Positions 1 through 8,531 of a stretch of DNA of 12,481 nt are shown here, one piece after another. A program made the translations under genes and the position numbers. Below the pieces are notes generated by a model that saw only the letters and a program-made list of their open reading frames with translations, searched no databases and had not been told where the DNA came from. This DNA is from a virus. Lineage: Duplodnaviria > Heunggongvirae > Uroviricota > Caudoviricetes. Every line of letters begins with the position of its first letter. The first letter of the stretch is position 1. The DNA lies in IMG/VR virus record IMGVR_UViG_2617270959_000010, one strand, 5' to 3'.

Positions 1-270
1 ATGAAAGAGCTTGAGTTAAAGAAACCGATTACCGCTCATGGCGAGACACTCTCCGTACTGGAGTTTGATGAGCCCACCGGGAAAGATGTCCGCGAGCTGG
101 GGTATCCCTACCAGATGAATCAGGATGAGTCCGTCAGACTTCTGGCGCATGTGGTATCGAAATACATTGTGCGGCTGGCGAAAGTGCCGCAAAACTCTGT
201 CGACCAGATGTCTCCGGCAGACCTGAATGCAGCGGCGTGGCTTGTGGCTGGTTTTTTCCTCCAGGCCTGA
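1..270 (+). CDS. Phage tail assembly chaperone (lambda gpG-like / Mu gp41-like), 0-frame product; may be 5'-truncated by the window edge
   Basis: 89-aa ORF immediately upstream of and overlapping-coupled to the tape-measure gene; slippery heptamer 4 codons before its stop; position typical of chaperone genes. Upstream context not visible. Confidence 0.55.
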   Translation: MKELELKKPITAHGETLSVLEFDEPTGKDVRELGYPYQMNQDESVRLLAHVVSKYIVRLAKVPQNSVDQMSPADLNAAAWLVAGFFLQA

Positions 271-419
271 CGGCTGAATACCTCACTGATCGCTTCTTTG
301 ACTGCGCCAGCTACTGGCGCATTAATCCCTTCGAATTGCTGAATATGCCGATCAGTGAAATTCCCTTGCTGGTCAGTCAGGCAAACAGGATAGAGCAGGA
401 GAAACGCACACATGGCTGA
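1..419 (+). CDS. Tail assembly chaperone -1 frameshift fusion product (gpGT-like), about 139 aa if the slip occurs at 252-258
   Basis: Overlapping ORFs 1..270 (frame 1) and 237..419 (frame 3) in the -1 relationship; the frame-3 ORF ends at 419, overlapping the tape-measure ATG at 412. This is the conserved arrangement upstream of tape-measure genes in tailed phages. Confidence 0.45.
252..258 (+). other. Candidate programmed -1 ribosomal frameshift site (slippery heptamer T_TTT_TTC)
   Basis: Frame-1 codons GGT TTT TTC at 250-258 give an X_XXY_YYZ heptamer at 252-258; the -1 frame (frame 3) stays open from 258 to the TGA at 417-419. Confidence 0.5.
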
Positions 420-2253
420 ATTTGAGCTTAAGGCGTTGATCACCGGTGTCGACAGGCTTTCTCCCGCGCTGTCGAAAATGCAAAAGAAAATCCGGGGATT
501 TAAACGCCAGGCGGAAGAAGCGTCACAGGGTGGGCTGGCGCTTGGTGGCGGACTGGCAGCGGGTCTGACGCTTTCCCTGAAATCTTATGCCGATCAGGAA
601 AACGCCGCCACCGGGCTGAAAGTCGCCATGATGGATGCGAATGGCGAGGTTGGAAAGAGCTTTCAGGACATCAATAAACTGGCTATTGGCCTGGGTAACC
701 AGCTACCCGGTACAACGGCTGATTTCCAGAACATGATGCAGATGCTGGTGCGTCAGGGGATCCCGGCAGAAAACATTCTGGGTGGTGTGGGTAAAGCGAC
801 AGCTTATCTTGCGGTACAACTGAAAAAAACACCGGAAGCGGCTGCTGAGTTTGCTGCAAAGATGCAGGATGCTACCGGAACGGCGTCAGAAGACATGATG
901 GGGCTGTTCGACACTATCCAGAAGGCGTTTTATCTGGGCGTTGACGATACCAACATGTTGTCCTTCTTCACTAAAACCAGTTCTGTTCTGAAGATGGTGA
1001 ACAAGGACGGTCTTCAGGCTGCACAGAGCCTTGCCCCCATCAGCGTCATGATGGATCAGATGGGGATGAACGGGGAGTCGGCAGGTAATGCCCTGCGAAA
1101 AGTTATCCAGTCCGGATTAAGCGTTAAGAAAATCAGGGACGTCAATAAAGTCATGGCCCGCCAGAAACTCGGGGTACAGCTCGATTTTACTGACGGCAAA
1201 GGAAGTTTTGGCGGTCTTGATAACATGTTCAGGCAACTGGCAAAGCTGCGAAAACTGACCGACGTTAAGCGAACAGGTGTACTTAAGGCAATATTTGGTG
1301 ATGATGCCGAAACCCTTCAGGTGGTCAATGCACTAATCGATAAAGGAAAGGATGGCTACGATCAGATCCAGCAGAAGATGAATAAACAGGCCAGCCTGAA
1401 TAAACGTGTTCAGGCCCAGCTTGGTACGCTGTCCAACCTGTGGGAGGCAATGACGGGGACCGCAACTAACGGCCTTGCGGCTATTGGCGGCGCATTTTCT
1501 GGTGACGCCAAAAATATCACGCAATGGCTGGGGGAGTTAGGGGAAAAATTCACGAAGTTTGCGGATGAAAATCCCCGGGTTATTCGCGGCGTCGTCGGGC
1601 TTGCTGCCGGTCTTGCGATTCTGAAACTGGGATTGATGGGCGTTGGCGGGGCCATCAGTATTGTCAGCAGGATCATGTCGATGACGCCGATTGGAATGAT
1701 TGCGACGGCGATAGCCCTGGCTGCGGGATTAATTATCACTAACTGGGATGTTGTCGGACCTTATTTCAAGAAGCTCTGGGAAACCATTGGTCCTTATTTT
1801 GAGGCTGGCTGGGAACTTCTGAAGAAGGTTTTTGCCTGGTCGCCGCTGGGGATGGTAATCAATAACTGGGGACCGGTTGTTAAGTGGTTTCAGGATATGT
1901 GGGACAAGCTGAAGCCGATTATTGAATGGTTTACCGACAGTTCCGGTGACACGGTCGATGCCATTAACTCTGCGCAGTGGGGCGCGGGTGCTTATGATGC
2001 TTATGGGACGGGATTCCCGGCGCGGGGATACACACCTTATCCGGCGATGGATCCGGCTCAGGCAAACAACGCCTCCGATGCCACAGGCCCGAATCCCTTC
2101 ATGATTAACAAAGCTTCTGCGCCAAAAGTTGACGGTGAGATCAAGGTCTCTTTTGTGAATTCGCCTCCGGGTATGCGGGTTATGGAAACGCGATCCAGCG
2201 GTATCGACGTGAATCACGACGTTGGCTACACCCGATTTGGTATGGGGGGCTGA
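412..2253 (+). CDS. Tail tape measure protein
   Basis: 613-aa ORF; N-terminal region predicted helical (A/L/K/Q-rich), central Gly/Ala-rich hydrophobic segment, C-terminal Trp-rich repeats (WDVVGPYFKKLWETIGPYFEAGWELLKK...WGPVVKWFQDMWDKL); located between chaperone and baseplate genes. Confidence 0.8.
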   Translation: MAEFELKALITGVDRLSPALSKMQKKIRGFKRQAEEASQGGLALGGGLAAGLTLSLKSYADQENAATGLKVAMMDANGEVGKSFQDINKLAIGLGNQLPGTTADFQNMMQMLVRQGIPAENILGGVGKATAYLAVQLKKTPEAAAEFAAKMQDATGTASEDMMGLFDTIQKAFYLGVDDTNMLSFFTKTSSVLKMVNKDGLQAAQSLAPISVMMDQMGMNGESAGNALRKVIQSGLSVKKIRDVNKVMARQKLGVQLDFTDGKGSFGGLDNMFRQLAKLRKLTDVKRTGVLKAIFGDDAETLQVVNALIDKGKDGYDQIQQKMNKQASLNKRVQAQLGTLSNLWEAMTGTATNGLAAIGGAFSGDAKNITQWLGELGEKFTKFADENPRVIRGVVGLAAGLAILKLGLMGVGGAISIVSRIMSMTPIGMIATAIALAAGLIITNWDVVGPYFKKLWETIGPYFEAGWELLKKVFAWSPLGMVINNWGPVVKWFQDMWDKLKPIIEWFTDSSGDTVDAINSAQWGAGAYDAYGTGFPARGYTPYPAMDPAQANNASDATGPNPFMINKASAPKVDGEIKVSFVNSPPGMRVMETRSSGIDVNHDVGYTRFGMGG

Positions 2254-2334
2254 TACCCCGCTTAAACACGGGTTTTGTCGTTTAGCAGGTTCTTGGTAGG
2301 ATTAGTCCGATACTTTAATGATGGGAATAGGGAT

Positions 2335-3012
2335 ATGAAAGTCTTAACAATTTATTCAGTTGTCGGCATGGCTCTTTTACTCGGGGGATGTACCTCTCCG
2401 AAGTACAATTATTTACCAAAAACAGAAAATTATAGTGAACCTCCTGTAGGAAGCATTAATACAGCTTATGTCGGTGATTCAATGATTAAGCAGGGGGTGT
2501 CACAGAGGTTTGAAGGTCTGAAGGTTAATGCTCCTGCGAGAATTTCCTGGGCGTATACGATCACTCCGGGGATGCTGAAAAAGGTTGGTGAGGATAACAA
2601 GGCTGATTATTACTTTCTCACAAACGGTGCTGATTCAGCCAATGTGGAAAAGGCAGCCCTTGCCGATATGTGGCAGGGCATCATGGTAGAAAAGAAAAAG
2701 AATGCCTTATGTGTAATAACAGTTTTCGGTGTTACCAACTGTGAAACTAACATGCCTATCGAAAAGGTTACTCTGAATATCAGTGGTGATTCATCTTTCC
2801 AGCAAGCTCTGCTTTACAACGGAAGGGTCGGAAACAAAATCAACATTGGATATCGTGAATTTTCATCGAATACAGCACGCCCGGCCTTCAACAACGATGT
2901 TGAGTATGATCTCGCGGAGTCTAAAACAATTGGCTATAAAGGGGCTAAATTCGAAGTACTTGATGCGAGTAACCAAAGCATAAGGTATCGGGTAATAAGT
3001 AACTTTAGATAA
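2335..3012 (+). CDS. Predicted outer-membrane lipoprotein of unknown function (moron); start revised to ATG 2335
   Basis: ORF track starts at a TTG (2275), but the ATG at 2335 gives a typical signal peptide MKVLTIYSVVGMALLLGG-C with lipobox LGGC and Thr at +2; GGGA 8 nt upstream; visibly AT-richer than flanking tail genes; followed by a strong intrinsic terminator. Confidence 0.7.
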   Translation: MKVLTIYSVVGMALLLGGCTSPKYNYLPKTENYSEPPVGSINTAYVGDSMIKQGVSQRFEGLKVNAPARISWAYTITPGMLKKVGEDNKADYYFLTNGADSANVEKAALADMWQGIMVEKKKNALCVITVFGVTNCETNMPIEKVTLNISGDSSFQQALLYNGRVGNKINIGYREFSSNTARPAFNNDVEYDLAESKTIGYKGAKFEVLDASNQSIRYRVISNFR

Positions 3013-3026
3013 GCGATAATTTAATG

Positions 3027-3050
3027 AAACCCGCTTCGGCGGGTTTTTTT
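3027..3050 (+). terminator. Rho-independent terminator after the lipoprotein gene
   Basis: AAACCCGC-TTCG-GCGGGTTT hairpin followed by T7 tract (3044-3050), 15 nt after the lipoprotein stop. Confidence 0.75.
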
Positions 3051-3065
3051 ATATCCGGAGTTTAT

Positions 3066-4295
3066 ATGACGTGGAAAGACAGACTTCAGGACGCGTCATT
3101 TCGCGGCGTGCCGTTTAAGGTTGAAGAAGAAAGTGCGGGAACCGGTCGTCGTGTGGAAACGCACGAATACCCGAACCGCGACAAACCCTATACCGAAGAC
3201 CTGGGGAAAATCACTTTCCGCCCGTCCATCACGGCTTATGTGGTGGGAGATGACTGCTTTGACCAGCGCGATCGCCTGATTGACGCGCTGAATAAACCCG
3301 GTCCCGGCACGCTTGTCCATCCGACTTACGGTGAGCTGAAAGTCTGTGTTGACGGAGAAGTTCGGGTCAGCACATCGAAGAGTGAAGGGCGTATTGTCCG
3401 CTTTGACCTGAAGTTTGTCGAAGCAGGAGAACTCTCTTACCCCACATCAGGTGCGGCGACGGCGCAGACGCTGATGTCATCCTGTTCTGCACTGGATGAC
3501 TGCATCAGTGACAGCTTCAGCGGTTTCAGTATCGATGGTGTGGCGGATTTCGTGCAGAACGACGTTATCGGTAATGCCAGCATAATGCTGGGGTATGTTT
3601 CTGATGCGATGAAAGTGGTGGATTCTGCCGTATCGGATGCCGCCAGGCTGTTGCAGGGGGATATCTCGGTACTTCTGCCGCCGCCATCGTCAGGCAAAAA
3701 TTTCGTTGAGCAGGTGCAGAAAATGTGGCGTACCGGGAAACGCCTTTATGGTAACGCCAGCGACCTGGTCACCATGATCAAAACGCTTTCCGGTGTCAGC
3801 CTCGGCAGCGATCTGCAACCGCGCGGCGTCTGGAAAACGGATAGTAAAACCACCGCCACGGCGACGCAGCAGAGTAACGTGGTTGCCAGCACCCTTCGTA
3901 CGACCGCAATCAGCGAAGCGGCGTATGCCGTCACCCGATTGCCTGCGCCAACAACTTCCGCGGTGATGCAGAATGCCGCAGTGGAGCAGGCAACAACACC
4001 TGCGCAGAGCACTGGCTGGCCTTCCGTCACGCATCCGGCACTGAACAATGCACCGGCGGTGAAAAACACGGTTGACCTGCCGACGTGGGAAGAACTGACT
4101 GACATTCGCGACACACTGAATACGGCAATTGATAAGGAGTTGTCCCGTACAACCAGTGATGCGCTGTTTCTGGCGCTGCGCTGGGTGAAAGCAGATCTGA
4201 ATGCGGATATCAACACGCGCCTTGAACAGTCTGCACGGATCATTCAGCGCACACCGGATGAGGTTTTACCCGCGCTGGTGCTGGCGGCGACCTGA
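3066..4295 (+). CDS. DNA circularization protein N (Mu gp43-like); start revised to ATG 3066
   Basis: N-terminus MTWKDRLQDASFRGVPFKVEEE...GRRVETHEYPNRDKPYTEDLG matches my recollection of the conserved Mu N N-terminal domain; GGAG 5 nt upstream of ATG 3066; the ORF-track start at 3024 would place the terminator hairpin inside the CDS. Confidence 0.8.
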   Translation: MTWKDRLQDASFRGVPFKVEEESAGTGRRVETHEYPNRDKPYTEDLGKITFRPSITAYVVGDDCFDQRDRLIDALNKPGPGTLVHPTYGELKVCVDGEVRVSTSKSEGRIVRFDLKFVEAGELSYPTSGAATAQTLMSSCSALDDCISDSFSGFSIDGVADFVQNDVIGNASIMLGYVSDAMKVVDSAVSDAARLLQGDISVLLPPPSSGKNFVEQVQKMWRTGKRLYGNASDLVTMIKTLSGVSLGSDLQPRGVWKTDSKTTATATQQSNVVASTLRTTAISEAAYAVTRLPAPTTSAVMQNAAVEQATTPAQSTGWPSVTHPALNNAPAVKNTVDLPTWEELTDIRDTLNTAIDKELSRTTSDALFLALRWVKADLNADINTRLEQSARIIQRTPDEVLPALVLAAT

Positions 4296-4330
4296 TTTGA
4301 TAACGCGGCGCGTGACGCGGACATTATCCG

Positions 4331-4347
4331 GCGTAATGCCATTACGC
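4331..4347. promoter_or_regulatory. 17-bp palindrome (GCGTAATG-C-CATTACGC) in the 95-bp gap upstream of the hub-like gene; candidate regulator-binding site or late promoter element
   Basis: Perfect 8-bp inverted arms with 1-nt spacer, read directly; lies in the only sizeable intergenic gap within the tail operon. Confidence 0.3.
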
Positions 4348-4390
4348 ATCACGGCTTTGTGCCGGTGATCCCTCTGAAGGTGCCAGTGCA

Positions 4391-4912
4391 ATGAACGATA
4401 ACGTCACGCTACGGGTAAATGGCCGGGAGTGGAATGGCTGGACATCGGTGCGCATCGGTGCCGGTATTGAACGGCTGGCGCGGGATTTCAGCGTGGAGAT
4501 CCCCCGCCAGTGGCCGGGAGATGAGGGTATCACCACGCTTCAGCCGCGCATTAAAAATGGTTCAAAAGTGGAAGTGCTGATTGGTGATGAGCTGGTGATC
4601 ACCGGCTGGGTGGAGGCGACCCCCGTTCGTTACGATTCCCGTTCGGTCAGCACCGGTATTGCCGGACGTAGTCTGACTGCTGACCTGATTGACTGTGCAG
4701 CCGAACCGACACAGTTTAACGGACGATCGCTGGTACAGATTGCGCAGGCGCTTGCTGCGCCTTTCGGCATTGAGGTGGTGAACAGCGGTGCGCCGTCGGG
4801 TGTTATTCCTGATGTCCAGCCTGATCACGGTGAAACGGTGATCGAGGTGATTAACAAAATACTCGGTCAGCAGCAGGCGCTGGCTTATGACGACCCGCAC
4901 GGCAGTCCGTGA
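4391..4912 (+). CDS. Baseplate hub-like protein (Mu P/gp44, P2 gpD-like), N-terminal-type domain only; 173 aa, much shorter than typical hubs
   Basis: N-terminus MNDNVTLRVNGREWNGWTSVRIGAGIERLARDFSV...IAGRSLTADLIDCAA resembles what I recall of gpD/gp44 hub N-terminal domains; position after the gp43-like gene. Confidence 0.5.
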   Translation: MNDNVTLRVNGREWNGWTSVRIGAGIERLARDFSVEIPRQWPGDEGITTLQPRIKNGSKVEVLIGDELVITGWVEATPVRYDSRSVSTGIAGRSLTADLIDCAAEPTQFNGRSLVQIAQALAAPFGIEVVNSGAPSGVIPDVQPDHGETVIEVINKILGQQQALAYDDPHGSP

Positions 4913-5145
4913 CGCTGACCCGGGCGGGTATCGTGGTGGACGGCGGCGGGAAAACGCTCACGTTTCGCAATGCGCCCAGAGCACGTTTTGAAATGGACCT
5001 GGAAGTGACCGGACAGGTGAAAGACCTGTGCGACTCCGGCGGCACCACCATGTCAGCGATGCGGCTTGCCTATAACGGGCATCGTCACAGAGAGAACGGT
5101 CAGGGCAGTAACACCGACAAACCTGATAAAGCGATGGAGGCATGA
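4909..5145 (+). CDS. Small ORF (78 aa) with GTG start overlapping the upstream stop (GTGA) in the -1 frame; possible hub/spike remnant or small baseplate protein
   Basis: GTG 4909 overlaps TGA 4910-4912; ends ATGA-coupled to the GP46-like gene. Together with 4391..4912 it occupies only about 0.75 kb where Mu-type modules usually carry hub plus spike genes. Confidence 0.35.
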   Translation: MTLTRAGIVVDGGGKTLTFRNAPRARFEMDLEVTGQVKDLCDSGGTTMSAMRLAYNGHRHRENGQGSNTDKPDKAMEA

Positions 5146-5570
5146 TGGAACTGTGGCTGACGGTGAACGGTAAACGCACCTGTGCCAGCGCACCGCTGGA
5201 GCCGCTGACCCGCGCTGTGGTGATTTCCCTGTTCACCTGGCGGCGGGCGGAGCCTGATGACAACGCCGACGTCCCGATGGGATGGTGGGGGGATACCTGG
5301 CCTGCGGTACAGAATGACCGTTACGGCTCCCGACTGTGGCTGCTTCAGCGCAGCAAACTGACCAATCAGCTGGTGCAGACAGTAAGGGGGTATATCCGCG
5401 AATGCCTGCAATGGATGATTGATGACGGCGTGGTGTCCCGTATTGATCTGGATATCCGCCGCACCGGGATTAATGAACTGGGTAACAGTATCACTCTCTG
5501 GCGTCGTGACGGACCGGTAATGATTTCTTTTGATGATCTGTGGAGTGCGATAACGCATGGCGGACAGTGA
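5142..5570 (+). CDS. Baseplate protein, phage GP46 family (Mu gp46-like)
   Basis: 142-aa ORF, ATGA-coupled to the upstream gene and overlapping the downstream Baseplate-J-like gene; size and position match Mu gp46. Confidence 0.7.
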   Translation: MMELWLTVNGKRTCASAPLEPLTRAVVISLFTWRRAEPDDNADVPMGWWGDTWPAVQNDRYGSRLWLLQRSKLTNQLVQTVRGYIRECLQWMIDDGVVSRIDLDIRRTGINELGNSITLWRRDGPVMISFDDLWSAITHGGQ

Positions 5571-6615
5571 ATTTCAGCGCCCGACGCTGGCAGAAAATAT
5601 CAGTATGCTCCGTAACGATTTATTCGCCAGGCTGGACGTCAGCGACACGCTCCGGCGCATGGATGAAGACGTGCGGGCAAAGGTGTATGCGGCGGCGCTG
5701 CATACGGTTTACGGGTACATCGATTATCTGGCAATGAACATGCTGCCTGACCTGTGCGATGAGTCCTGGCTGGCGCGACATGCTGCGATGAAACGGTGTC
5801 CGCGCAAGGGGGCCACGACTGCCAGCGGGTATATGCGCTGGGAAGGTGTCAGCGATGGCCTGAAGGTGACCGCCGGGAGCGTGATTCAGCGCGATGACCT
5901 GGTTCAGTACACGGCAACTGCCGATGCAACCAGCTCCGGTGGTGTCCTGCGCGTGCCGATCGCCTGCTCAAGTGCAGGCGCGGTCGGTAACGCTGACGAC
6001 GGTACGTCATTAATCCTGGTCACGCCGGTGAATGGTCTGCCGTCTTCCGGCGTGGCAGATACCCTGACAGGTGGATTTGATACTGAAGAGCTGGAAACGT
6101 GGCGCACCCGCGTCATTGAGCGGTATTACTGGACGCCTCAGGGCGGGGCTGACGGGGACTATGTCGTCTGGGCTAAAGAAGTGCCCGGCATTACCCGCGC
6201 ATGGACATACCGTCACTGGATGGGAACGGGAACTGTCGGTGTGATGATTGCCAGCAGTGACCTGATTAATCCCATTCCGGAAGAATCAACGGAAACGGCG
6301 GCAAGACAACATATCGAGCCACTGGCCCCGGTGGCAGGCTCTGATTTGTATGTGTTCAGGCCGGTGGCACATACGGTGGATTTTCATATCCGCGTGACGC
6401 CGGACACACCGGAAATACGGGCTGCCATCACCGCGGAGTTGCGTTCGTTCCTGCTGCGTGATGGTTATCCGCAGGGAGAACTGAAGGTATCGCGTATCAG
6501 TGAGGCGATTTCCGGTGCGAACGGGGAATACAGCCATCAGTTGCTTGCACCGGCAGACAATATCTCCATTGCAAAAAATGAACTGGCGGTTCTGGGGACG
6601 ATTTCATGGACGTGA
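5557..6615 (+). CDS. Baseplate J-like protein (Mu gp47 / P2 gpJ-like wedge protein)
   Basis: 352-aa ORF in the canonical position between the GP46-like and DUF2313-like genes; overlapping starts and stops indicate translational coupling. Confidence 0.8.
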
Positions 6616-7190
6616 CAAACGATGATTACATCCGTCTGTTGTCGGCACTGTTGCCCCCCGGTCCGGCGTGGTCAGCCAGCGATCCGGCGATTGCCGGTGC
6701 GGCACCGTCATTAACCCGTGTTCATCAGCGTGCGGATGCCCTGATGCGGGAGCTGGATCCGCGCACCACCACTGAACTGATAAACCGCTGGGAGCGTCTG
6801 TGCGGTCTGCCGGATGAATGTATTCCCGCAGGGACAAAGACCCTTCGTCAGCGTCAGCAACGGCTGGATGCGAAGGTTAACCTGGCGGGCAGCATCAACG
6901 AGAATTTTTATCTTGCACAGCTTGCTGCCCTGGGCAGACCAGATGCCAACATCACGCGATACGACAAAAGCACGTTCACCTGCTCATCGGCCTGTACTGA
7001 CGCGGTGAATGCGCCGGAATGGCGGTATTACTGGCAGGTCAACATGCCAGCTGCCACCAACACCACCTGGATGACATGTGGCGATCCCTGTGATTCCGCA
7101 CTGCGTATCTGGGGCGACACCGTTGTCGAGTGTGTGCTTAACAAACTCTGCCCGTCGCATACCTACGTAATTTTTAAATATCCGGAGTAA
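6606..7190 (+). CDS. Baseplate/tail protein, Mu gp48 / P2 gpI-like (DUF2313, YmfQ-like)
   Basis: 194-aa ORF; N-terminus with ...[12 protein letters not shown]... recalls YmfQ/gp48 family proteins; lies immediately upstream of the tail fibre gene. Confidence 0.8.
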
Positions 7191-7193
7191 TCC

Positions 7194-8126
7194 ATGCATC
7201 GTATAGACACGAAAACCGCGCAGAAGGATAAGTTCGGCGCGGGTAAGAACGGTTTTACCCGTGGTAACCCCCAGACCGGCACACCTGCCACCGATCTGGA
7301 TGATGACTACTTTGACATGTTGCAGGAAGAACTTTGTAGCGTGGTGGAGGCCTCCGGTGCCAGCCTGGAGAAGGAGCGGCACGACCAGTTGCTTACCGCG
7401 CTTCGTGCGCTGCTGTTAAGCCGCAAGAATCCGTTTGGTGATATCAAATCGGATGGCACGGTGAAAACGGCTCTCGAAAACCTTGGTTTGGGAGATGGCT
7501 CGGGGCGTTACAGCAAAACTGTCGTTTTTTCATCGTCGGGTTCATATACGTGGCCAGCTGACGTAAAACGAATTGACGTTATTCTGACTGCGGGGGGCGG
7601 CGGTGGCGGTGGATGTAACGCGGAGAACGCAAATCAGACATTTTCAGGGGCTGGCGGAGGAGCCGGAGGTACTGTTTTTGCCACTATTTATGCGACAGAC
7701 AACGATGCCGGGCCAGGGACCTATACAGTGACAATTGGTAGCGGTGGTAGTGGTGCCAATGGGCCAGGGTCTGGAAATAATGGCGGTCATAGTTCGTTCA
7801 TGACATTAACTGCGCTCGGCGGCCAGGGTGGGCAATGGGGCGGCGCTACAAATACCGCTGGCGGGCGCGGTGGCTCAGGCTCTGGCGGTTATAAAACTGA
7901 ACAAGGCGGAGACGGTTCAGACGGACAGGCGGGCCAGGCGCTATTAGTAGGCAATGGGGCATCGAGCTATTGGGGTGGCGGCGGCCGCGCTGGGCAACTG
8001 AGCGGTAATCCTGGAGTTTGCTCTGGCTCCGGCGGCGGGGGTGCATACGATAATAGCTATTCACACACGTCAGGACGTGGCGGGCACGGAGCTAATGGCG
8101 TGCTGGTAATTCGGGAGTACATGTAA
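7194..8126 (+). CDS. Tail fibre protein with a glycine-rich C-terminal domain
   Basis: N-terminal domain [55 protein letters not shown] typical of side-tail-fibre N-termini; residues about 130-300 are extremely Gly-rich ([32 protein letters not shown]...); GGAG 6 nt upstream of ATG; followed by a Tfa gene. Confidence 0.75.
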
Positions 8127-8531
8127 ATGAATGATATCTATGCAGTTGTTGATAATAACGTTGTTATTAATGTCATTATCTGGGACGGAATTTCTGAATG
8201 GAAACCAGAGGCTGGTAATTTAGTTCCGTTAAACGGCGATGCTGGCATCGGTTGGTCATATTCAGACGGAGTATTTACCGCGCCACCTCCCCCAGAACGC
8301 TCTCACAACGCGTTAGTTGCGGAGGCTGAGCTGCAGAAATCAGCACTATTGACCGTAGCAAATAACGCAATAGCACCGCTGCAGGATGCCGTTGATTTGG
8401 AAATGGTGACAGACGATGAACAGGCGTTACTGCTGGCGTGGAAAAAATACAGGGTACTGCTGAACCGTGTTGATACCTCAGCGGCACCCGAAATAGAGTG
8501 GCCTACGCAACCGGGGGAGCGGGCCAGTTGA
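8127..8531 (+). CDS. Tail fibre assembly protein (Tfa)
   Basis: C-terminus ...[48 protein letters not shown] closely matches the conserved lambda-Tfa C-terminal motif as I recall it; N-terminal third is AT-rich and unrelated. Confidence 0.8.

Follow-up and report, generated by a model that had tools for sequence, protein, structure and literature searches.

The gene directly downstream of the tail fibre gene in this prophage is an ordinary, intact two-domain tail-fibre chaperone gene of a known family. We consider it highly probable that it belongs, as a functional-looking gene of the shortest two-domain form, to the lambda Tfa / Mu U / P2 G family, and is carried by an E. coli prophage with a Mu-like tail, with an N-terminal domain that would supply specificity and with a place, next to the fibre tip, in a mobile cassette. 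The reading frame is present in the window (the whole stretch of 12,481 nucleotides that we analyzed), with the translation that an earlier sequence-only reading of this DNA had quoted. Its product matches the Pfam family PF02413 (Caudo_TAP) with 112.7 bits, against a cut-off of 22.1, and phrog_188 of the PHROGs collection with an E-value of 4.8e-35. The corresponding RefSeq entry is WP_016240464.1, "tail fiber assembly protein", a name that is already correct, and for the annotation of genomes the finding is of little consequence. The Pfam match is limited to amino acids 42–129 (profile positions 41–130 of 131), and the conserved, lambda-Tfa-like C-terminus recognized in the sequence-only reading is thus confirmed.

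The tfa gene has the same orientation as the fibre gene, and the TAA stop codon of the latter (8124–8126) adjoins the tfa start codon; together with a Shine-Dalgarno-like element upstream (Table 1), this suggests translational coupling. On the 5' side of the two genes, Pfam identifies Mu-like baseplate genes (gp44-like, GP46, Baseplate_J, and Mu Gp48), and on the 3' side, convergent gtrA/gtrB/gtrC-like genes of O-antigen modification. Positions 6600–9000 are 100% identical to an E. coli chromosome in which the prophage adjoins ybhB-bioA and the tfa ORF bears the annotation "tail fiber assembly protein". The tail operon and the 3' end of the gtrC-like gene, which converges on it, are separated by a candidate terminator, a strong hairpin of eight pairs (seven of them G-C) with a T-rich tail. 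The promoter and terminator scan gave nothing above chance within tfa, and the search of Rfam gave no match across the entire window. The fibre itself consists of a constant StfP/e14-like N-terminal part (approximately amino acids 1–100) and a glycine-rich tip (amino acids 114–307; Gly_rich_2, PF21722, 68.6 bits). PGAP/RefSeq splits this single ORF into an "stfP pseudogene, missing C-terminus" and an overlapping "glycine-rich domain-containing protein"; the split is an artefact that arises when a mosaic fibre is named by homology.

Table 1. Positions of the features discussed in the text
Feature	Position	Strand	Remarks
Tail fibre gene, 310 aa	7194–8126	+	Intact ORF; presumed client of Tfa
Din-family (Hin/Gin/Cin/Pin) invertase crossover-like site CTCTCGAAAACCTTGGTTTGGGAGAT	7471–7496		Inside the fibre ORF
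Shine-Dalgarno-like GGGAG	8113–8117	+	Read from the sequence; 9 nt before the tfa ATG
tfa, tail fibre assembly protein gene	8127–8531	+	ATG start, 134 aa plus stop, intact ORF
N-terminal domain, aa 1–52	8127–8282	+	Predicted all-beta; AT-rich coding
Proline-rich linker PPPPERS, aa 53–59	8283–8303	+	Unstructured in the model; old junction at its end, ~8292
Conserved C-terminal helical domain, aa 60–129	8304–8513	+	Helices 60–90 and 96–113 in the model
tfa' remnant, last ~42 codons, in-frame stop	8503–8640 (approx.)	−	From translation; PGAP pseudogene 8503–8631
Terminator-like hairpin GCGGGTGCTTAGCACCCGC + T-rich tail	8788–8815 (hairpin 8788–8806)	+	Consensus scan only

The AlphaFold2 model of Tfa (pLDDT 90) predicts five short strands, the proline linker, and two helices. 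The strands (amino acids 3–9, 12–19, 31–34, 44–46, and 49–51) have pLDDT values of 83–92, and both helices have values above 92. The helical domain ends in the conserved ...RVDTS..P.I.WP and matches Mu gpU (PDB 5YVQ_B) with a profile E-value of 3e-17; indeed, Mu U (TfaMu) has the same C-terminal domain, with ...LQ.AV.L.MATDEE...W..Y.VL..RVDT...WP. DNA searches against phages and E. coli genomes match only nucleotides ~193/244–386 of tfa, and over nucleotides ~244–386 the identity to tfa genes of 5,020 of the 5,426 complete E. coli genomes, of lambda, and of Sf phages is 72–76%. At this level, the shared sequence of the C-terminal part reflects deep family conservation rather than recent transfer. 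The same ~65 C-terminal residues are ~65% identical in lambda Tfa and in the E. coli prophage proteins tfaQ/R/E/P/S. Lambda Tfa, with 194 amino acids, has an unrelated and longer N-terminal domain and serves a different fibre tip.

The modular design of Tfa proteins, with distinct N- and C-terminal domains, has already been described for the phages Mu and Pam3. In Mu Tfa, a nonconserved N-terminal domain binds the fibre, whereas the conserved C-terminal domain drives trimerization and assembly (PMC9608196). Mu U is likewise a two-domain protein, and its gene, which lies in an invertible segment, directly follows that of the fibre. Its N-terminal domain, however, is ~100 amino acids long and alpha/beta with extra helices, whereas ours has ~52 and is predicted to be all-beta; only the last W-x-[YF]-x-D-G hairpin of this domain can be aligned between the two, and the client tip of Mu is of a different type. 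In Pam3, a 55-residue beta-sandwich of gp25 grips the TNF-like/glycine-rich tip of the fibre gp24, and a helical domain trimerizes (PMC9608196). Our protein follows the same plan, with an N-terminal beta domain of ~55 residues, a short linker, and a helical C-terminal domain, and both fibres are short (280–310 amino acids) with a glycine-rich distal domain. The Pam3 fibre complex (7ypx_a, with a chain of 162 residues, the length of gp25) was also the only significant PDB match to the Tfa model in Foldseek (E-value 1.8e-4, probability 1.0, 125 aligned columns), with low TM-scores (0.38/0.32) and an rmsd of 8.1 Å; the domain orientation may differ. On the other hand, gp25 has four helices where our protein has two, the host and the tail module are unrelated, and a profile search of the PDB found no sequence-level homology between gp25 and our N-terminal domain.

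Because of the Mu and Pam3 precedents, the match of the C-terminal domain to Mu U, and the pairing with glycine-rich tips described below, we read this protein as a minimal Tfa whose N-terminal domain is a specificity module. The all-beta N-terminal domain of ~52 residues would recognize the glycine-rich distal tip of the adjacent fibre, and the two-helix C-terminal domain, by analogy with Mu Tfa and Pam3 gp25, would trimerize and drive the folding and trimerization of the fibre; it is thus a putative trimerization and assembly domain. From such comparisons we infer direct binding of the N-terminal domain to the fibre, activity as a chaperone, and the direction in which genes have flowed.

The sequence-only reading took the N-terminus to be novel, and named full-length homologs with the same N-terminus in unrelated phages as evidence against its proposal. 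Such homologs do occur. Among 5.8 billion proteins, we found dozens of full-length Tfa homologs of 128–142 amino acids, with 93–100% query coverage and 43–70% identity. Their source genera include Enterobacter, Atlantibacter, Pantoea, Providencia, Yersinia, and Pseudomonas, and the tail modules that contain them are contractile, P2-like and Mu-like among others. From 1.84 billion representative proteins, a profile built on residues 1–57 retrieved 4,967 clusters at E ≤ 1e-3, of which 1,050 had E ≤ 1e-10. These form four groups: proteins of 57–70 amino acids that consist of the domain alone, proteins of 130–140 amino acids with a Caudo_TAP C-terminal domain, proteins of 170–200 amino acids with DUF4376 (PF14301), and tandem duplications. 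The N-terminal domain has no Pfam model of its own. It corresponds to PHROG 14370 (phrog_14370, 63 positions, function unknown), with amino acids 1–55 aligned to profile positions 1–59 at an E-value of 6.6e-15, and its pattern is Y-A-x-I-x(5)-V-x-N-x(3)-W-D-G ... G-I-G-W-x-Y-x-D-G-x-F-x-x-P-P. Searched with tblastn, the N-terminal 59 residues gave only a 19-residue motif match among 50,697 phage records, to the tfa of phage Goslar, and the profile of the domain found only chance-level matches in the PDB, none of them meaningful at E ≤ 10.

Using the full-length Tfa alignment as query, we then collected the loci of relatives and compared the fibres encoded upstream. At loci with this N-terminal domain, all 20 distinct upstream fibre tips are glycine-rich, with a glycine fraction of 0.19–0.35 over the last 180 amino acids of the fibre, and of at least 0.25 in 15 of them. 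For 58 tfa genes with N-terminal domains of other types, this fraction has a median of 0.10 and is at least 0.25 in a single case; this exception (locus L079) bears a divergent copy of the same N-terminal domain. By phmmer or Pfam, the glycine-rich tip was detected in 19 of 21 loci of our type, and the two that were missed are visibly glycine-rich, with tips ending in ...GIMVIEEYA and ...GIFIVEEFA. The pairing is a correlation across loci that are not phylogenetically independent. It nonetheless extends beyond proteins of the Caudo_TAP family, since the stand-alone N-terminal domain (L092) and the domain fused to DUF4376 (L093) are also encoded downstream of Gly_rich_2 fibres. Proteins with DUF4376, whose C-terminal assembly domain is PF14301 rather than PF02413, are themselves known as tail fibre chaperones, e.g., gp27 of Alteromonas phage V22 and gp9 of phage A5 (PMC10579305); some of them (P0147, P0155, P0160, and P0204; locus L093) have our N-terminal domain, again after a Gly_rich_2 fibre.

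These sequence comparisons suggest that the N-terminal domain is what makes the protein specific for the glycine-rich tip encoded next to it. It is joined to at least three assembly domains, namely two subtypes of the Caudo_TAP C-terminal domain and DUF4376, and also occurs alone or in tandem. We lean, if only slightly, toward a broader statement: that the domain is a module for client recognition, autonomous and portable, that is dedicated to Gly_rich_2 tips. If this is true, the type of the N-terminal domain alone could predict which chaperone is paired with which fibre. What is new here is modest, namely the large uncatalogued family of N-terminal domains and its strict pairing with Gly_rich_2 tips; it is of relevance for the engineering of host range in phages and tailocins, where a fibre and its cognate chaperone must move together.

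The region also carries traces of an invertible segment. The crossover-like site inside the fibre gene is an imperfect palindrome with an exact AAACCNNGGTTT core, and matches hixL, in the form that we take it to have, at 19 of 26 positions. Its half-site ATCTCCCAAACC adjoins a gene of the resolvase family in another locus (L005), and is present in a further one (L003) too. Moreover, the break of homology among E. coli fibre genes (7495–7501) coincides with the site. It appears, from these alignments, to be the left edge of an exchangeable cassette comprising the fibre tip and tfa. At the other end of the gene, the tfa' remnant overlaps the 3' end of tfa tail-to-tail. Its C-terminal domain is of the second Caudo_TAP subtype, ...LNAVLDYIDAV...INWP, which is also that of the homologs P0063 and P0073, and intact counterparts are found in both L003 and L005. 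The latter is an intact invertible segment with an invertase gene of the resolvase family: its first arm encodes a Gp53-like_C tip followed by a Tfa with another type of N-terminal domain, and its second, inverted arm encodes a Tfa with our type, paired with a Gly_rich_2 tip. By comparison, tfa' seems to be a relic of such a segment.

The shared features place the locus beside the invertible systems Mu G, P1 C, and e14 P (stfP/tfaP-tfaE/stfE-pinE), which likewise have a crossover-like site in the fibre ORF and tfa and tfa' tail-to-tail; the constant N-terminal part of our fibre is e14 StfP-like and is at least 96% identical in ~1,590 genomes. Unlike these systems, however, ours lacks an invertase gene, a right-hand site, and an alternative tip, and is thus frozen in one orientation. 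Indeed, we found no invertase gene among the ORFs or in the annotation of the window, no partner of the crossover-like site in an inverted-repeat search of 7100–9000, and no second alternative arm of tip and tfa in the window, where the only trace is the tfa' stump. We propose that the fibre tip and tfa form one host-range cassette, formerly one arm of a segment flipped by an invertase, and that this segment is now frozen, with the crossover-like site left, tfa' reduced to a stump, and the invertase gene gone. As a separate observation, a second exact AAACCNNGGTTT core is found at 9008–9019, in the AT-rich gtrC-like ORF (site 9001–9026, TTGATGTAAACCGAGGTTTGAATATA on the minus strand). This site matches gix, as we assume its sequence to be, at 18 of 26 positions, and the central dinucleotide of its core differs from that of the site in the fibre gene. 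By a rough estimate, an exact match to the core is expected ~0.01 times per window. The site is either a relic crossover site or a chance occurrence.

The loss of the invertase gene and the in-frame stop of the neighboring tfa' stump are also what might be expected if tfa were a decaying relic of a cryptic prophage, without present function. A further sign is a deletion at 4901–4906, of 868 bp that prophages with 99% identity elsewhere possess (positions 3434–4301 of the locus L001), with an overlap of 5 nt at the joint. It takes away the C-terminal portion of the gp44-like baseplate hub, together with the N-terminal portion of the gp45/V spike. The prophage in this copy is probably unable to build tails, so that its tfa may no longer serve the production of virions. 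Nevertheless, the other prophage copies have a complete baseplate, and both fibre and tfa are intact, translationally coupled by the arrangement of their stop and start codons, and at least 95% conserved in 67 complete E. coli genomes. We therefore regard the decay of tfa itself as rather unlikely, and retain the reading of a functional-looking chaperone gene.

The sequence-only reading also stated that the 5' part of the gene is AT-rich, and the base composition is indeed not uniform. The first 150 nucleotides of tfa have a GC content of 0.387 and a GC content at third codon positions (GC3) of 0.32, versus 0.553 and 0.53 for nucleotides 151–405. The lowest 120-nt window, near the start of the gene, has a GC content of 0.34; in the upstream tail genes (1–8126), windows of this size have a mean of 0.543 (sd 0.063), and only 0.3% of them are at or below 0.36. 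Part of this is explained by the protein itself. With the codon usage of the baseplate genes, amino acids 1–50 would be encoded with a GC content of 0.486 and a GC3 of 0.58, so that the observed values deviate by z = −4.5 and z = −4.0, respectively. About half of the deficit therefore comes from amino acid content (N, I, V, D, and Y), and about half from the choice of codons. Within tfa, GC3 differs between the N-terminal part (16/50) and the C-terminal part (45/84; Fisher's p = 0.02). The contrast of the N-terminal domain with the fibre tip gives p = 0.058, and with the rest of the cassette, p = 0.03. The GC3 contrast inside the cassette is thus only marginal. In weaker form, the low GC3 extends to the whole cassette: upstream, GC3 drops from ~0.63 to ~0.47 at approximately codon 100 of the fibre gene and remains low through tfa. 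For fibre amino acids 101–310, GC3 is 0.47, versus 0.62 in the baseplate genes, and when the fibre tip is pooled with tfa, the difference from the baseplate genes has p = 2e-5.

One could argue that the AT-richness has no evolutionary meaning, and is the outcome of amino acids typical of beta-strands (the five just named), of weak mRNA structure at a coupled start, or of both. The amino acids alone do lower the predicted GC content to the 0.486 given above, from ~0.57 in neighboring genes, and the start codon directly follows the fibre stop codon, with the Shine-Dalgarno-like element 9 nt upstream. Nor is the AT-richness intrinsic to the domain: in L093, from a host with 63% GC, the N-terminal domain has a GC3 of 0.68. 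However, the GC3 of 0.32 lies four standard deviations below what amino acids and local codon usage predict, and on this ground we rejected a pure amino acid effect as the whole cause. Moreover, the deficit spans ~150 nt, well past the region of initiation, and the reduction of GC3 concerns the whole cassette from about codon 100 of the fibre gene. An explanation of this kind seems to us quite improbable. The L093 value instead indicates that the AT bias belongs to the lineage rather than to the domain. Among homologs in Enterobacterales, mean GC3 is 0.37 for the N-terminal domain and 0.46 for the C-terminal domain, with the N-terminal domain lower in 12 of 16 nonredundant loci. In our preferred reading, that of a specificity domain within a mobile host-range cassette, about half of the AT-richness of the N-terminal domain would stem from the low GC3 of the lineage of such cassettes, and the C-terminal domain would be nearer to the resident composition, plausibly through recombination with the many resident tfa genes. 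The E. coli genomes have a median of three places that match tfa.

The history of the gene is nevertheless mosaic, as becomes evident when the two halves are compared separately, a comparison that had been proposed in the sequence-only reading. Identities to our protein in the N- and C-terminal halves are discordant: 94% and 73% for P0003, ~51% and 84% for P0006 and P0007, and 49–58% and 37–38% for P0063 and P0073 (58% and 38% for P0063), whereas in P0041, P0048, and P0055 the N-terminal half is unrelated and the C-terminal half is 86–92% identical (92% in P0041). The two halves of tfa have thus had separate histories. With respect to genes of the P0041 type, DNA identity rises from below 0.45 to above 0.67 at ~8292, in the proline linker, and the similarity continues to ~8575, through the inverted tfa'; position ~8292 is thus an old junction at the domain boundary.

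A more recent exchange is revealed by L088, an unrelated phage with a different baseplate (Sheath_initiator / Phage_Wedge1) and RecT/YqaJ genes downstream. It shares with our prophage a cassette of approximately 7450–8380, which spans the fibre tip and, in tfa, the N-terminal domain, the linker, and 25 codons at the start of the C-terminal domain. Identity is mostly 91–100% (mean ~96%), with a dip to 78–87% around 7675–7750. The right edge, at ~8380, falls in PLQDAVDL, a motif more strongly conserved than any other part of the family. The modular exchange that the sequence-only reading envisaged is therefore borne out, in that the fibre tip and the specificity part of the chaperone were exchanged together. 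On the left, ~1,590 of the 5,426 complete E. coli genomes have at least 96% identity over 6600–7495/7501 and then diverge, and the tip and tfa are present in only 64–67 of the 5,426. The cassette would move between phages through crossovers in conserved DNA, that is, in the linker of the fibre gene (~7420–7500) and in the part of tfa encoding the C-terminal domain, for which we suggest a role as a hotspot of homologous recombination. It thus offers a worked example of the break points of a host-range cassette, with the crossover-like site in the fibre gene at one end and the PLQDAVDL region of the Tfa C-terminal domain at the other. Many E. coli fibre genes that differ elsewhere share a stretch of ~80 bp (7419–7501) at 96–98% identity (matches H227–H231). 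The crossover-like site lies within this stretch, which probably acts as a homologous-recombination linker in the exchange of fibre tips as well.

The sequence-only reading had placed a recombination junction at the step in base composition (~8250–8290), which would make the gene a recent chimera, specific to this gene, of a foreign AT-rich 5' part of ~40 codons and the 3' half of a lambda-like tfa. The sharpness of the step speaks for such a fusion, as do the DNA matches limited to the 3' part, the Pfam coverage of the C-terminal part only, and the genes of the P0041 type, which share the C-terminal but not the N-terminal part and whose breakpoint lies near 8292. Yet the ~96% identity to L088 is unbroken across 8250–8290 and ends only at ~8380, so that the step lies within a block that was recently transferred as a whole, and a junction at the step is rejected. 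With dozens of full-length homologs in several genera and tail types, a DNA identity of only 72–76% between the C-terminal part and other tfa genes, and a GC3 that is lower in the N-terminal domain of the homologs as well, the recent fusion is already largely refuted, and we regard it as very improbable. What stands of the junction is that there are two modules with separate histories, joined at an old boundary at ~8292; what falls is its recent date and its position at the AT/GC step. Similarly, the comparison of halves upheld their discordance, and the supposedly novel N-terminus is a common one. Since this N-terminal domain is common and matched to the neighboring glycine-rich tip, what looked like a "chimera" is the modular design usual in this family, and not a new fusion. 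More generally, a compositional step within a gene need not be a recombination junction.

Several further observations concern the same prophage and its relatives. Beside the fibre cassette, at 8736–10258, the third gtr gene is not that of prophages which occupy the same ybhB-bioA site and are otherwise identical. In the window, this gene encodes a 488-residue protein with no Pfam match; in L002, the product is a "glucosyltransferase domain-containing protein". Of the other two gtr genes, gtrA is conserved, and in gtrB homology returns only at the extreme 3' end. The difference looks like the swap of a serotype-conversion cassette. Between the tape-measure and DNA-circularization genes, a 245-residue ORF (2275–3012), annotated as hypothetical, has a GC content of 0.415, the lowest of the tail module, and looks like an insertion of the moron type. 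Finally, the searches returned identical matches to a lambda-like tfa (65% identity to amino acids 64–129) in contigs of Veillonella, Bradyrhizobium, Kitasatospora, Leeuwenhoekiella, Paenibacillus, and others (L051–L072). Several of these contigs carry a coverage of ~1–2x in their names, and the matches are most likely contamination of the assemblies with lambda DNA.
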